Positions 50,270-57,287 of a stretch of DNA of 64,000 nt are shown here, piece by piece. Position 1 is the first letter of the stretch. Each line of letters opens with the position of its first letter. Below the pieces are notes generated by a model that was given only the letters and a program-made list of their open reading frames with translations, searched no databases and was not told where the DNA came from. Position numbers and translations under genes: made by a program. Source of the DNA: Escherichia coli (GTDB lineage: Bacteria; Pseudomonadota; Gammaproteobacteria; Enterobacterales; Enterobacteriaceae); NCBI RefSeq assembly GCF_024298765.1, contig NZ_CP101210.1; one strand, given 5' to 3'.

Positions 50270-50884
50270 TTACCCTTCGATAAAGGCCATCCCTGTAAAC
50301 GTTCGTCGCGGGTTGCCACGTTCAATCTGGTGATGGAACATTCGCCGCTGCGATTTCAGCGCCGCGCTATTTTCCTGTTGCTGTTGTTCCAGCTTCCAGG
50401 CAATCAGTAATCGCGCCAGCCGTTTGTTAGCATGCTGACTGCGCTCTGACTGAACCTTCACGCTAATACCGGATGCCAGATGCGTGGCGCGTACCGCCGA
50501 GTCGGTTTTATTGACATGTTGACCGCCCGGCCCCGACGAACGCAGCGTCTCATAACGGATTGCATCCGATTGTTCCTGCTCATCAGCGGTAAAACGCCCA
50601 ATGCCCAGAAACCAGTTTTTGCGCCCATGATGAGGCCGATACGGACTCGGACAAATCCACTGAATAGTGCCGCACCAGCTTTCGCTTAGAGCCCATGCGT
50701 TATCGCCATCCAGAGAAATCAGCGCCGAACGCAGTGTGTCAGAGTAGCGACCCGTTTCTGTTTCCAGCACCGTTACCGCGACGTCCTGTCGGGTAGCTTC
50801 TTTAATCAGCCTGTCCAGTGCTTTTCTCACTGCGAGACAACATTCTTCCGGCCCCTGAGCAGAGGAGAGTTGTAGCAAGATCAT
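50270..50884 (-). CDS. prfH: Peptide chain release factor homolog PrfH (GGQ motif present), apparently full length
   Basis: Start at [14 protein letters not shown] overlapping the upstream rtcB-like stop (ATGA); contains [15 protein letters not shown]. Confidence 0.85.
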
Positions 50885-52020
50885 CCTTTTTTCCCTCCAC
50901 TGTTTTTGAGCGTCAGCACCGGGCGCAGTCGCGCGACAGGAATAATTAACCCAGCCAGCACCAGACATTGCACCACGCTTTCAGCCGATTTATAGGCTTG
51001 TGGCGCTTCTTCAAAGATGAGTTGTTTATCGCGACAAATTACCCGACTGCCAAGTTCAGTCCGCGAGAGTTGCGTCGCCGTGTATTTCGCTGCCAGACGC
51101 CCTTTACACTCGGTGCGCCCCCATTTACGCCCCGCCCCATGCGCCAGCGAGTGGAGCGTTTTTTCGTTCGCAACAGGTTTAACCAGCCAGGAGTAATCGC
51201 CGCGTGAACCGGGAATAATCACCAGACCGTTGTCATCCGGCGTGGCGCCTTTACGATGCAACCAGCCCTGTTGATCGCCGATTTGGCACGCGCTAACAAA
51301 GTTATGCGCCACATCCAGAACCGGACTTCCGGTGGCCTTAACTTGTTGCATTATGCGCAAAGCGATCAGCTGGCGATTAATACGCGCAAACGCCAGCGCA
51401 TCGTCATGTTCCGCAATATACCGTAGCGCGTCGTCACTGCCTTCAGGCAAACCATGATGCGAAAACGAGGCAATATGCCGCTGTAAAATAGACTGCCCCA
51501 ATCCCCTCGAGCCGCTATGAACCAGCAGTTGCAGATGCTGCGCATCCAGACCAGCCAGTGCAAACAGTTCCGCGTCGATAATTTGATCAATCTGTTGCAG
51601 TTCTACGAAGTGGTTACCGCCACCGATGGAGCCAAGCGAGTTGCGCCACGGATGCTGTGCAAATGCTGACGGCAGGTTTTCCTCCAGCCAGCTTTCTTCA
51701 GCAACGTCATCCAGATCTGATAATCGCTTTTCAAACTTATCGGCGTTGTATTTGCGAGCGAGAATATCTGTTTGCCATAGCGCCATGCCGCAGCCGATAT
51801 CATTGCCGACCAGTGCCGGGTAAAAACGACCAACAGAGAAGAACGCTGCGCCAATCGGGTAGCCGCGTCCGGGATGTAAATCTGGCATCCCCACAACGCG
51901 CTGCATGTTGGGTAAATTTGCCGTGGTGTGTAATTGTTGGATCGCTAAACTCTCGATCCACAGGTCATCAGATGCGATGGTAAATACCGCATCGGATAAG
52001 GGACGAATATATTTGCCCAT
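50881..52020 (-). CDS. rtcB: RtcB-family RNA ligase paralog coupled to prfH
   Basis: Start at [13 protein letters not shown] within ORF 50881..52032; RtcB-like His/Cys-rich motifs ([17 protein letters not shown]). Confidence 0.8.
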
Positions 52021-52209
52021 GTACCATTCCATTTATGAATAAAAATCAGGAAATGGCAGACGAATCCAGGGCAAGAAAAAAGAATTAATCCTGGAAAGGT
52101 CTGCAAAGAGTCATTGATAAAGGATTTGTCATGATTTACCTCCTTGCAGTTTGTGGAATAAGAAAACGCGCACATACTAGACGGGCGTTATTTTCATTGC
52201 AAGCTGGAT

Positions 52210-52662
52210 TTAATGTTGCGGTTTATATCGCATATAAAAATTAGTAAACCACGTTCCCCGGCATTCAACGCGCTGCTGCTTAACTGTCTGAAAACCATAA
52301 CGTTCAAAAAAGGGTTTTGCGGTTATGCTGGCGTCCACCGTAAGTTCGGATTCAGACTTAATCAATGGTTTTAACAAAGCGCTGGCAACTCCGCGTCGGG
52401 TGTATTCCGGTTCAACAAATAACATATCGATATAATGTCCAATGCGGGTAATAAAACCAACCGGTTGTGCATTAATAACTGCAACCCGCACTTGTGATTT
52501 CGCGAGTTTCTCCTTCCAGCGAGATTCGTCAATCTGCGCCCAGGCGGCAATTTGCTGTGGAGAATAGTGCTGACTCGCCGTCATCGTAACAGCTCGAAGG
52601 AAAATAGCGCATAGTTGCTGAAAATCACCAGGCTGATAGTTTCTTATTTGTATGTTATTCAT
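52210..52662 (-). CDS. yafP: GNAT-family N-acetyltransferase YafP
   Basis: 150-aa ORF; start overlaps the dinB stop. Confidence 0.9.
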
Positions 52663-53714
52663 AATCCCAGCACCAGTTGTCTTTCCATTTGAGGGTCAAG
52701 CAACGTCACATGCAGCCCCACCAGTCGCACACCGCGCCCGCCGCGACGTTCATCCCAGGTTTTACGCGCGGTGGCGATTAGATCAGCTTTATTCAGCCGC
52801 GGCCAGACGTGCTCCTGAGTAGTTTGCTGAAAATCGTCGAACTTTAATTTCACCCCCTGGCGAGCAATCAGTAAATCAGGTTTTACCTTTGCCAGACGGC
52901 GTTCAAGTTCAGGATACAGCCGCTCAATAATCGCTTCACATTCAGACCAGTGATGAATATCTTCCGCCATCGTGCGTTCCACGCCGACGGATTTTCGCAA
53001 CCGTTCACTGTTAACGTCGCGCTCGTCAATCCCCTGACTACGCTCCCACAAAATGCGGCCAAATTTGCCAAAGCGTTTAAGCAGAATCACCAGATCACAC
53101 TTTTGCACATCACCGCAGGTCCGCAGCCCCATCGCTTCCAGTTTTGCCGCCGAGACTTTGCCGACGCCGGGAATTTTTGCCAGCGGTAAGGTTTGCAGAA
53201 ATGCCGGAACTTCTGCCGGCGTAATCACAAACTGACCGTTGGGTTTATTCATGTCGGAAGCAATTTTGGCGAGAAACTTGACCGGCGCAACGCCCGCAGA
53301 CGCCGTCAGTTGCAGCTCGTTGAAGATCGTCTGGCGGATTTCCTGGGCGATGAGGGTCGCAGAACCGTGGCAATGGACGCTATCGGTGACATCGAGATAG
53401 GCTTCATCCAGTGATAACGGTTCAATGCGCGAGGTATAGCGCGAGAAAATTTCGCGGATATGATTTGAGGCTTCTTTGTAGGCGTCAAAGCGCCCTGGAA
53501 GCAAGGTGAGATGCGGGCATAATTTGAGCGCCATCCCTGTCGGCATAGCGCTACGTACGCCAAATTTACGCGCGGGATAATTGGCGGTGCTGATCACCCC
53601 CCGTCGTTCGCGGCTGCCGCCAATAGCAATAGGGATATCGCGCAGGGCGGGATTATCGCGCATCTCCACCGCTGCGAAAAAGCAGTCCATATCCACATGA
53701 ATGATTTTACGCAT
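52659..53714 (-). CDS. dinB: DNA polymerase IV (Y-family translesion polymerase)
   Basis: 351 aa [33 protein letters not shown]...; UmuC-type catalytic motifs. Confidence 0.95.
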
Positions 53715-53784
53715 TGCTCACCTCTCAACACTGGTAAAGTATACAGTAATTTCAGGGGTTGAGAAATGCGTAAAGATTCAGCAT

Positions 53785-54500
53785 TTAACGCGCTCGCTGC
53801 GAAAGCACCTGCTGCTTATCCAGCTTTTGCACCAGCGGCTGCACCACTTTATCCCCATGCTGACCAAAGTATTGATACAGCGTATCGGACGCACTTTTGG
53901 TCAGCACCATAATCTCAATGCGCCGGTTGCCCGCGCTTTGCGGATTTTTGGCATCCAGCAACATCTGGTCCGCCATTGCGCTTACCTGCATCACTTTATC
54001 TTCCGGCATTCCGGCCTCTTCCAGCACCCGACGAGCCGAAAGCGCGCGATCGCCCGAAAGGTTCCAGTTGTTGTAGATATTGTTTTTGTAGGCCATCGCA
54101 TCGGTATGCCCGGTAATAATAATTTTGTTATCGAGAGAGTCGAACACCGGCGCAAGCTCCACCAGCAGCGTTTTAAAGAACGGCATAATCTTCGCGCTGC
54201 CGCGTTCAAACATATTGCGGTTCTGGTCGTCTTTAATCAGCACGCGTAATCCCTGGGGAACAATCTCCATCTCCAGATTCGCTTCCATATGCGCATCACG
54301 GGCGATGGTATTGATACTGGTTGCCAGCTCGCCAAGCTCGGTGGCGGATTTCTTCTTCAGCAGCGCCGTTTTCTCGTTGACGTCGCGCGCTTTTTTCTCC
54401 GTCTCTTCCGGCACCGCCACGGTGGCAGGTTTTGGCGGATGAGACGGGCTGATTTTATTTAACGGCGACAGCCCGCCACCATTGAAAATCGACTGCCCGT
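53785..54500 (-). pseudogene. lafU: Remnant of lateral-flagellar (Flag-2) motor protein gene lafU (MotB-like C-terminal OmpA domain)
   Basis: C-terminal OmpA/MotB-like region (...IIITGHTDAMAYKNNIYNNWNLSGDRALSARRVLEEAGMPED...); N-terminal part of ORF 53785..54675 is antisense to the lfhA fragment and not MotB-like. Confidence 0.7.
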
Positions 54501-54544
54501 GCAGCGCGGCGATAATGCTTTCACGCTCGGATTTACTGACGCTG

Positions 54545-56254
54545 TTGACAATCAACTTTATCGTCGTCACCAAGGGGGCCGAGCGTATTTCCGAGGTTTC
54601 TGCCCGCTTTACCCTGGACGCGATGCCCGGCAAACAGATGGCGATTGACGCCGATCTTAACGCCGGGTTGATCAACCAGACGCAGGCGCAAACCCGGCGT
54701 AAAGATGTCGCCAGCGAGGCCGATTTCTACGGCGCAATGGACGGGGCATCAAAATTTGTGCGCGGGGACGCCATCGCCGGGATGATGATTCTGGCAATCA
54801 ACCTGATCGGCGGCGTCTGTATCGGCATCTTCAAATACAACCTGAGCGCCGACGCCGCCTTCCAGCAATATGTGCTGATGACTATCGGCGATGGGCTGGT
54901 GGCGCAAATCCCTTCCCTGCTGCTCTCCACCGCGGCGGCGATTATCGTCACCCGCGTCAGCGATAACGGTGATATCGCCCATGACGTGCGTAATCAGTTG
55001 CTGGCAAGCCCGTCGGTTCTCTACACCGCCACTGGAATTATGTTCGTGCTGGCGGTGGTGCCGGGAATGCCGCATTTCCCGTTCCTGATGTTCAGCGCCC
55101 TGCTTGGTTTTACCGGCTGGCGGATGAGCAAGCGCCCGCAAGCGGCGGAGGCGGAAGAGAAAAGCCTCGAAACGCTAACCCGTACGATGACAGAAACCAG
55201 CGAGCAACAGGTCAGTTGGGAAACTATTCCGCTGATCGAACCTATCAGTTTAAGCCTCGGCTACAAACTGGTGGCGCTGGTGGATAAAGCGCAGGGCAAC
55301 CCGCTCACCCAGCGTATTCGCGGCGTACGTCAGGTGATTTCCGACGGCAACGGCGTGCTGCTGCCGGAGATCCGTATTCGGGAAAACTTCCGCCTCAAGC
55401 CCAGCCAGTACGCCATTTTCATCAACGGCATTAAGGCTGATGAAGCGGATATTCCGGCAGATAAACTGATGGCCCTGCCCTCCAGCGAAACCTACGGCGA
55501 GATAGACGGCGTGCTGGGGAACGACCCGGCGTACGGGATGCCGGTCACCTGGATTCAGCCCGCGCAGAAAGCGAAGGCGCTGAATATGGGGTATCAGGTG
55601 ATCGACAGCGCCAGCGTAATTGCCACCCATGTGAATAAGATTGTGCGCAGCTATATTCCTGATTTGTTTAACTATGACGATATTACTCAGCTGCATAACC
55701 GTTTGTCGTCGATGGCACCGCGACTGGCGGAAGATTTGAGCGCGGCGCTCAATTACAGCCAGTTGCTGAAAGTGTACCGGGCGCTACTGACTGAAGGCGT
55801 TTCCCTGCGCGATATCGTCACCATCGCCACCGTGTTGGTCGCCAGTAGTGCGGTGACTAAAGATCATATTCTGCTGGCGGCCGATGTGCGCCTGGCGCTG
55901 CGGCGCAGCATTACCCATCCGTTCGTTCGCAAGCAGGAGCTGACGGTGTATACGCTGAATAATGAGCTGGAAAATCTGCTGACCAACGTGGTGAATCAGG
56001 CGCAACAGGCCGGCAAAGTGATGCTTGATAGCGTGCCAGTGGATCCGAATATGCTCAACCAGTTCCAGAGCACGATGCCTCAGGTGAAGGAGCAGATGAA
56101 AGCGGCGGGGAAAGATCCGGTGCTGCTGGTGCCGCCGCAGCTGCGCCCCTTGCTGGCGCGCTACGCAAGGTTGTTTGCGCCGGGGCTGCATGTGCTGTCG
56201 TATAACGAAGTGCCGGATGAGCTGGAGTTGAAGATAATGGGGGCGCTGATATAG
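54545..56254 (+). pseudogene. lfhA: 5'-truncated lateral-flagellar FlhA homolog (lfhA), remnant of the Flag-2 cluster
   Basis: FlhA-like from ...INFIVVTKGAERISEVSARFTLDAMPGKQMAIDADLNAG (about FlhA residue 140) to the C-terminus; the first ~20 codons of ORF 54482..56254 are not FlhA-like. Confidence 0.75.
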
Positions 56255-56257
56255 GCA

Positions 56258-56535
56258 TGATAAGACGCGTCTGCGTCGCATCTGGCACCGGTACACAACC
56301 GCCGGATGCGGCGTGAACGCCTTATCCGGCCTACGGGTGAGCACGGTTTTGTCGGCATGATAAGACGCGTGGCGTCGCATCTGGCATCGGCGCACAACCG
56401 CCGGATGCGGCGTGAACGCCTTATCCGGCCTACTGGTGAGTGCGGTTTTGTCGGCATGATAAGACGCGTAGTGTCGCATCAGACACCGGCGCACAACCGC
56501 CAGATGCGGCGTGAACGCCTTATCCGGCCTACAAA
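56258..56535. repeat. REP/BIME cluster: three tandem ~98-bp units of repetitive extragenic palindromes
   Basis: Repeated gcatgataagacgcg...gtcgcatc...gccggatgcggcgtgaacgccttatccggcctac units at ~56258, 56356, 56454. Confidence 0.85.
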
Positions 56536-57287
56536 ATCGTCTCTTCCGTCAAAATCCGTCGCGCGCCTAAAAAATGGTCCTGCCAGAAAGGTTCGGCTAA
56601 CCGACTTACCCGAATGGTTTCCCCGGTGCGCGGTGACTCGATAAACTGACCGTCTCCAAGATATACGCCCATATGGTCGGCTATCTCACGACTGTGGATA
56701 TGGAAAAACAGCAAATCTCCCCGGCGCAGGTCGTTATTCGCCACAATCGTTGCCCGACGGTAGTGGTACATCTCATTGGCCGTGCGCGGGAGCTTAGCCT
56801 CAAGGATCTTGTTGTAGGCATAAAAAACCAACCCGCTACAGTCGAAGCCTTTATCAGGCCGCGTGCCCCCCCAGATATAAGGCTTACCTAGCTGCTGCTC
56901 CAGGCGGTGAATCGCCACTTCGGTGATGTTATGTAGATGGTCGCTGCTTAAGAAATGATTATTCTCCACCAACGCCTGCCAGCGTCTGTCACTCGCCTTG
57001 AGCGGCGCAGGAAACCATTCTGGATGCTGTTTTATCTGCTCCCGATTATGCTGGCGCAGCGCCCTTCTGCTTTTGGCATTGCCTTCCACAATATAGCTGG
57101 CCTGCTTTTTCAGATGGGTTTGGTACTGTTTTAATAAACGCGCACGGTTTTGCATCCGCTGGCGGGCGGCGTAGCTAAAAGAGATATGTGATGTGGTGGC
57201 GCTGGCGAGTAAAGGGAGCAAAACGCATAACGAAAACACGCCTGGATGCAGAAATCTGCCGTGCAAGAACGAAGACATGAAGGACAT
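56529..57287 (-). CDS. yafL: NlpC/P60-family peptidoglycan endopeptidase lipoprotein YafL
   Basis: 252-aa ORF with signal/lipobox-like N-terminus and NlpC/P60 catalytic region (...FDCSGLVFYAY...HMGVYLGDGQFIESP). Confidence 0.85.
   Translation of the reverse strand: MSFMSSFLHGRFLHPGVFSLCVLLPLLASATTSHISFSYAARQRMQNRARLLKQYQTHLKKQASYIVEGNAKSRRALRQHNREQIKQHPEWFPAPLKASDRRWQALVENNHFLSSDHLHNITEVAIHRLEQQLGKPYIWGGTRPDKGFDCSGLVFYAYNKILEAKLPRTANEMYHYRRATIVANNDLRRGDLLFFHIHSREIADHMGVYLGDGQFIESPRTGETIRVSRLAEPFWQDHFLGARRILTEETIL

Follow-up and report, generated by a model that had tools for sequence, protein, structure and literature searches.

How was the Flag-2 (lateral flagellar) gene cluster lost from the interval between dinB and yafL in Escherichia coli, and did this happen once or many times? 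The question is raised by a 64,000-nucleotide stretch of an E. coli genome (contig NZ_CP101210.1 of assembly GCF_024298765.1; hereafter the window), in which truncated copies of two Flag-2 genes, lafU' and lfhA', abut back to back and diverge from their junction. An initial annotation, made from the sequence alone, had described a MotB-like C-terminal fragment on one strand and an N-terminally truncated FlhA homolog on the other, meeting near 54500-54545, and had taken them for the signature of a deleted lateral flagellar cluster whose endpoints could be defined at base resolution by comparison with an intact Flag-2 locus such as that of E. coli 042. We regard the locus, with a probability of about 0.93, as the canonical Flag-2 deletion scar, from which some 36 kb was lost by an illegitimate join within an ATC trinucleotide, leaving two remnants that are probably inert pseudogenes.

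Both fragments were what the annotation had taken them for. The minus-strand open reading frame (ORF) had the OmpA domain as its sole Pfam match, with no MotB_plug, and the plus-strand ORF matched positions 99-656 of the 657 in the FHIPEP profile, its N-terminus missing. The intact locus of E. coli 042 (NC_017626.1, locus L003) served as the reference; in that strain the cluster (lfhAB-lfiRQPNM-lafK-lfiEFGHIJ ... lafWZABCDEFSTU) is bounded by lfhA and lafU, both of which face outwards. By blastn, window positions 52659-54556 matched dinB-lafU of 042 at 96.7% nucleotide identity and positions 54542-56532 matched lfhA at 91.7%, the two matches being separated by 36 kb in 042. Both genomes have the same flanking genes, and the outermost 1.7 kb of lfhA (from codon 131) and 0.77 kb of lafU in 042 are collinear with the window, whereas 042 has a 36,008-bp interior with the remaining Flag-2 genes and the window has none of them. 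The two fragments are thus the 3' ends of the terminal genes of the cluster, and an origin outside the Flag-2 termini, which would have contradicted the annotation, was not what the alignment revealed.

The junction was resolved to the base, as had been anticipated. In a three-way alignment the window was unambiguously on the lafU side up to position 54550 and on the lfhA side from position 54554, and the ATC in between (54551-54553) is present at both 042 breakpoints, constituting a 3-bp microhomology; the fragments do meet, therefore, although 6-50 bp further right than the interval first estimated. The exact E. coli junction sequence is GACGCTGTTGACAATC joined to AACTTTATCGTC. The deleted stretch measures 36,008 bp in 042 coordinates, no other Flag-2 gene remains between the remnants, and the codons lost are 1-52 of the 307 in lafU and 1-130 of the 697 in lfhA. 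The BLAST alignments overlap at the junction because a 15-bp patch agrees at 11 of 15 positions between the 042 breakpoints, a degree of similarity that is unexceptional, given that lfhA and lafU of 042 yield 443 15-mer pairs with 11/15 or more. As we picture the event, an illegitimate join within the 3-bp ATC would have joined the last 255 codons of lafU to the last 566-567 of lfhA, and the deletion of about 36 kb would have removed every other Flag-2 gene together with both operon promoters.

The scar itself is established knowledge and textbook material in E. coli genomics, its chief use being that of a strain marker. When a 111-bp probe with the junction at its centre was compared with the complete E. 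coli genomes (n = 5,426), it aligned end to end across the junction in 75% of them (n = 4,085), including K-12, the type strain ATCC 11775, O55:H7 and E24377A; most of the remaining genomes split at the junction, as expected from an intact locus. In the passages of De Maayer et al. 2020 (PMC6993521) that deal with these deletions, truncated lfhA and lafU copies are reported in 76 of 100 E. coli and, among Enterobacterales, in 531 of 4,028 strains, Citrobacter included, and, with reference to Ren et al. 2005, the deletion is ascribed to recombination of direct repeats located at its ends. The remnants of K-12 and B are named fhiA and mbhA (Archer et al. 2011, PMC3032704); the description of the scar in that paper and in the passages of PMC6993521 rests on Ren et al. 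2005. K-12 resembles the window in having the two fragments, fhiA (lfhA') and mbhA (lafU'), in divergent orientation at the dinB-yafL/rayT position, and its junction is that of the window, the 111-bp probe aligning end to end at 98.2%. The 2,601 bases around the scar in the window are 100% identical to those of E. coli Nissle 1917 (NZ_CP022686.1), a B2 strain whose allele is 95.3% identical to that of K-12 over 2.6 kb and which, unlike K-12, has no rayT next to lfhA' and no yafNO next to dinB.

Other forms of the locus were also encountered. Non-canonical junctions occur but are rare: in some E. coli (proteins P0015 and P0016) the C-terminal part of LafU (from ...LSPLNK on) is fused to a Gln/Pro-rich N-terminus that is putatively FliK/LafE-like. 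F' episomes of K-12 carry the dinB-lafU'-lfhA' segment, so that strains with such an episome have the scar twice. A mobile, plasmid-borne scar was considered and rejected, as the plasmid matches were only F' episomes or mislabelled chromosomes of E. coli and Shigella.

The same junction was found well beyond E. coli. A scan of one genome per species with the LafU remnant as query detected scars, besides E. coli, in E. albertii, Citrobacter sp. MGH106 and Kluyvera ascorbata, and all of these read ...GACGCTGTTNACAATC followed directly by AACTTYATYGT... at the DNA level, with genus-typical flanks right up to an ultra-conserved 7-20 bp. Searches of protein databases yielded truncated LafU forms in which an N-terminus encoded by antisense lfhA (...SAPLVTT[I/M/T]KL) is joined to I[V/L/I]xSV; they came from several species of Citrobacter, Kluyvera (three clusters), Atlantibacter (four to five clusters, P0127 being nearly identical to P0128), a Dryocola-like strain, Ewingella-like Yersiniaceae (three clusters) and two further lineages with 52-58% LafU' identity to E. 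coli. In all the contigs fetched (L022, L030, L035-L039, L047 and L048 among them) lfhA from Ile131-Asn-Phe abuts lafU Ile53, and the identical lfhA(Ile131)-lafU(Ile53) junction is present in at least 10 diverged lineages of two families. The shared breakpoint bases are apparently AT only (2 bp) in Atlantibacter and at locus L048. The genomic contexts of the scars differ between lineages (thiM/thiD, dihydrodipicolinate synthase (DHDPS)/cob, DJ-1), and lfhA' was a single open high-scoring segment pair in every lineage but E. albertii.

Truncated and intact forms proved to be interleaved. Within each genus the truncated LafU forms are no closer to each other (77-94%) than to the intact forms, which nest among them, and the truncated forms are not monophyletic in any genus. 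The truncated and intact LafU of K. ascorbata are one residue apart, and the flanks in this species are about 99% identical whatever the state of the locus. The en bloc lfhA-lafU deletions of De Maayer et al. 2020 (PMC6993521) are the phenomenon found here in Citrobacter, Kluyvera, Atlantibacter and others; the passages of that paper on the subject describe the deletion at the level of genes and state neither a nucleotide-identical junction across genera or families nor a phylogenetic interleaving of truncated and intact forms. The literature on fhiA/mbhA and lafU that was searched held nothing on cross-genus junction identity or on a function of the remnants. Junction identity across lineages combined with such interleaving has no obvious explanation, and we did not find it stated in the accessible literature.

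Within E. coli, alleles of the locus are strongly mosaic, scar alleles form no clade, and polymorphisms common to scar and intact alleles occur as near as 8 bp from the junction. Synthetic scars were assembled from an intact strain's own 700 bp on the lafU side, the ATC and its own 700 bp on the lfhA side, and were compared with real ones. Those of O111:H- 11128 and 042 each matched real scars at 99.9%; for FAH the best match was only 99.1%. The scar strain Z1323CEC0019 showed 11 real mismatches with O111 11128 in 17.4 kb of flanks, none of them clustered at the junction, and carries O111-private alleles 47 and 75 bp from it. Strain C4 resembles 042 between -953 and +4686, where the two show 5 mismatches; beyond these limits its sequence has diverged. 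A different picture emerged for two strains of phylogroup B1, E24377A (scar) and O111 11128 (intact), whose 10 differences are clustered at 54241-54619, with hardly any elsewhere, which looks like the signature of a tract imported around the junction.

Random illegitimate recombination does not predict a 36-kb deletion that has the identical junction in lineages with LafU identities to E. coli as low as 52-58% and with flanks of their own. The explanation that we prefer, tentatively and at slightly less than even odds, is that the identical base-precise deletion forms repeatedly from local intact loci, steered by a feature, as yet unrecognised, that resides in the conserved lfhA and lafU sequences, in which case scars would usually be young and would resemble the local intact allele. 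This is consistent with the finding that scars keep the junction even where LafU' identity to E. coli is at its lowest, each resembling its own genus, with the near-clonal pairs of scar and intact strains (Z1323CEC0019/O111 11128 and C4/042), and with the mostly undecayed state of the remnants. Synonymous-codon identity between genera was equal for the interior (lafT and lafU codons 1-52) and for the remnant parts, which argues against a mobile interior cassette; the idea that the Flag-2 interior is transferred between genera and inserted at a resident scar was rejected on the same ground. Repeated loss of Flag-2 from lafU codon 53 to lfhA codon 131 in many Enterobacterales lineages may thus be occurring, a proposal held with the same reserve, and it would imply a site-directed mechanism of genome reduction that has so far gone unrecognised and that would be directly assayable.

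The principal difficulty of repeated deletion is that no mechanism is apparent. Microhomology-mediated deletions are not expected to recur at one site. The microhomology here is 3 bp, or apparently 2 bp in Atlantibacter and L048, and in 042 alone lfhA and lafU share 68 exact direct repeats that are 8 bp or longer, three of them of 11 bp; an exceptional or generic microhomology was accordingly discarded as the determinant, since many longer repeats and the 443 equally good 15-mer pairs were available. In their use of a short direct repeat (ATC) within a patch agreeing at 11 of 15 positions, and in the small palindromes at both breakpoints, the scars resemble microhomology-mediated, RecA-independent deletions or the precise excision of transposons, but they differ from such deletions in spanning 36 kb with a 2-3 bp repeat when many better repeats were at hand. 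The palindromes were observed in the intact loci: a perfect 8-bp inverted repeat (GACGCTGT-N9-ACAGCGTC; L003 39385-39409) encloses the lafU breakpoint in its 9-nt loop, a perfect 10-bp palindrome, GATGATCATC (L003 3381-3390), immediately precedes the lfhA breakpoint, and the fused product at window positions 54539-54553 reads GTTGA-CAA-TCAAC. The hairpin GACGCTGT-N9-ACAGCGTC was rejected as the determinant of the lafU breakpoint because its 8-bp arms are broken in Kluyvera, where the scar nevertheless occurs. A XerCD/dif-like site was likewise dismissed, the best breakpoint matches to the 28-bp dif core being 14/28 and 15/28, within the range of shuffled sequences, and no recombinase is annotated in Flag-2 in the annotations examined, that of 042 included. 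The FAH-type and Nissle-type haplotypes also weigh against recurrence, in that neither has a perfect counterpart in the other state (best 99.1% and 98.8%).

The view that the deletion was a single event reportedly goes back to Ren et al. 2005. In the form considered here, the deletion would have arisen once or very few times, long ago, and would have spread through the flanking lfhA/lafU/dinB homology and been homogenised by homologous recombination, the junction being identical by descent; later recombination with intact alleles would have rewritten the flanks up to the junction, which acts as a heterology boundary. This account needs no new mechanism and works for E. coli, where the alleles are strongly mosaic and the E24377A/O111 11128 comparison gives the pattern of an imported tract; the nearly identical flanks of K. 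ascorbata in either state are also in its favour. Across genera it meets obstacles, and we hold it to be possible, though on the whole doubtful. The same junction is present in at least 10 lineages of two families, with flanks that diverge 7-10 bp from it and with differing contexts, which makes homologous recombination across lineages implausible, and identity by descent would require the polymorphism to predate Enterobacteriaceae and Yersiniaceae. In addition, truncated forms are monophyletic in no genus, and even in E. coli the polymorphisms shared by scar and intact alleles so close to the junction, together with the almost perfect match of scar alleles to O111-type and 042-type intact haplotypes on both sides, are hard to reconcile with it. 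If the deletion is not recurrent, the only alternative that the data leave is a presence/absence polymorphism older than bacterial families, its flanks continually homogenised by recombination, which would itself be remarkable: an exceptionally long-lived polymorphism in which recombination with intact alleles keeps pseudogene fragments looking alive.

The remnants have lost their defining domains. Intact LafU carries MotB_plug (PF13677) and OmpA (PF00691), and truncated LafU carries OmpA only; LafU' is without the N-terminal cytoplasmic segment, the transmembrane helix and the plug, and so lacks the helix with the conserved Asp and the plug by which a functional MotB/LafU stator is recognised. 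LfhA' is without the N-terminal transmembrane segments of a functional export gate (FHIPEP positions 1-98 unmatched), and all partner genes and both operon promoters are gone from the scar locus. A search for a promoter or start of the lfhA remnant gave nothing convincing, with one weak promoter-like consensus match at 54489-54516. These features suggest that LafU' and LfhA' are inert pseudogenes.

Several observations on sequence preservation speak against inertness. In the window and six scar strains from phylogroups A, B1, B2 and E, both remnants were gap-free, of equal length and without internal stops, and the Nei-Gojobori ratio of nonsynonymous to synonymous substitution rates (dN/dS) between scar alleles was 0.02-0.07, equal to that between intact alleles and near that of dinB. 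The lfhA' of Nissle and K-12 differ by 86.5 synonymous and 12.5 nonsynonymous differences, and those of two Ewingella-like scar genomes by 26 synonymous changes and 1 nonsynonymous change. Taken alone, open frames and low dN/dS would suggest constraint on the remnants. The main reason for the good state of the remnants, however, is probably that the alleles differ mostly by old polymorphisms, which recombination with intact alleles has shuffled. The intact allele nearest to Nissle lfhA' is that of strain A3 (98.8%), from which it differs at 25 synonymous and 2 nonsynonymous codons, clustered, and the changes private to Nissle number about 4, roughly 2 nonsynonymous and 2 synonymous. In Z1323CEC0019 (B1) lafU' has a GAG-to-TAG nonsense change (L033 8423), and lfhA' of E. 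albertii has a frameshift near codon 447 (L018 about 2552-2570). The few lineage-private changes look neutral, and purifying selection was rejected as the cause of the low dN/dS, the differences being mostly shared mosaic polymorphisms.

The same evidence bears on the proposal that the truncated pair is functional and under purifying selection, the conserved junction reflecting constraint and not history. Open frames in most lineages, dN/dS of 0.02-0.1 between scar alleles, the excess of synonymous changes in the Ewingella-like pair and the handling of LafU' as a protein by RefSeq would all fit with it. We nevertheless consider it highly improbable: with no transmembrane helix, plug or signal peptide, the peptidoglycan-binding domain of LafU' would stay in the cytoplasm, LfhA' has neither its N-terminal transmembrane segments nor any of its partner proteins, and no convincing promoter was found for the lfhA remnant. 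The start codon is not conserved either, gene callers picking GTG, ATG or TTG at differing places; both remnants can be inactivated, as in Z1323CEC0019 and E. albertii; the private changes of Nissle are about 1:1 nonsynonymous to synonymous; and truncated forms group with intact ones from the same genus.

The coordinates of the features are given in Table 1. The interval singled out in the initial annotation, 53785-56254, is exact at both ends, position 53785 being the first base of the lafU stop codon (minus strand) and 56254 the last base of the lfhA stop codon (plus strand), and the frames of the lafU and lfhA remnants are open over 255 and 566 codons, respectively. Automatic gene calls extend across the junction on both strands. 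The mechanical ORF called for the lfhA remnant begins 23 codons before Ile131, within antisense lafU DNA, and PGAP (the NCBI Prokaryotic Genome Annotation Pipeline) labels this remnant 'incomplete; missing N-terminus'. On the other strand, the GTG start and first 6 codons (MTTIKL) of the ORF named LafU are antisense lfhA DNA, and protein P0002 correspondingly begins MTTIKL, joined to IVNSVSK. The apparently intact 'LafU' coding sequence of RefSeq is therefore an annotation artefact common to thousands of genomes, and caution is warranted where this name is attached to a chimeric, truncated ORF.

Table 1. Coordinates of the scar and of adjoining features in the window.
Feature	Position	Strand	Description
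lafU remnant	53785..54550	minus	codons 53-307 + stop; 3' part of the Flag-2 MotB-like stator gene
Junction ATC	54551..54553		lfhA codon Ile131; part of lafU codon Ile53
lfhA remnant	54554..56254	plus	codons 132-697 + stop; 3' part of the Flag-2 FlhA homologue
15-bp patch CTGnTGAnnATCnAC	54542..54556		042 breakpoint regions agree at 11/15 positions
Chimeric ORF	53785..54570	minus	RefSeq/PGAP 'LafU', 261 aa, WP_000207550.1
Mechanical ORF of the lfhA remnant	54482..56254	plus	TTG start; from the ORF list
dinB	52659..53714	minus	conserved flank on the lafU side
Bacterial interspersed mosaic element (BIME)/repetitive extragenic palindromic (REP) array	56254..56532		2.8 copies of a 99-bp unit, separating the lfhA remnant from yafL

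Some further observations concern the neighbouring genes. In every lineage examined, a gene for an NlpC/P60 peptidase (yafL-like) adjoins the scar, but not always on the same side: it is on the lafU' side in L035 and L047, and on the lfhA' side in the window (56529-57278), L037, L039 and L040. The REP array has two matches to the Rfam family naRNA4 (RF02564) on the minus strand. The REP-associated tyrosine transposase gene rayT is found at the REP site in K-12, 042 and FAH and is absent from the window, and its spot is occupied by hicAB in B1 strains. On the other flank, yafP comes immediately after dinB in the window, overlapping it by 4 bp (52659-52662); the yafN-yafO toxin-antitoxin pair stands between these genes in K-12, 042, CB9615 and FAH, and is absent in the window, E24377A and O111. 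A gene for an RtcB-family RNA ligase (50881-52032, minus strand, and upstream) is followed by prfH (release factor H), both intact in Nissle according to PGAP and both annotated as pseudogene fragments in strain C4. Finally, LafT and LafU of Pseudocitrobacter (L016, L017 and L028) share 96-99% protein identity with those of E. coli, far above the values for Citrobacter or Kluyvera, which suggests that Flag-2 was recently transferred between genera.

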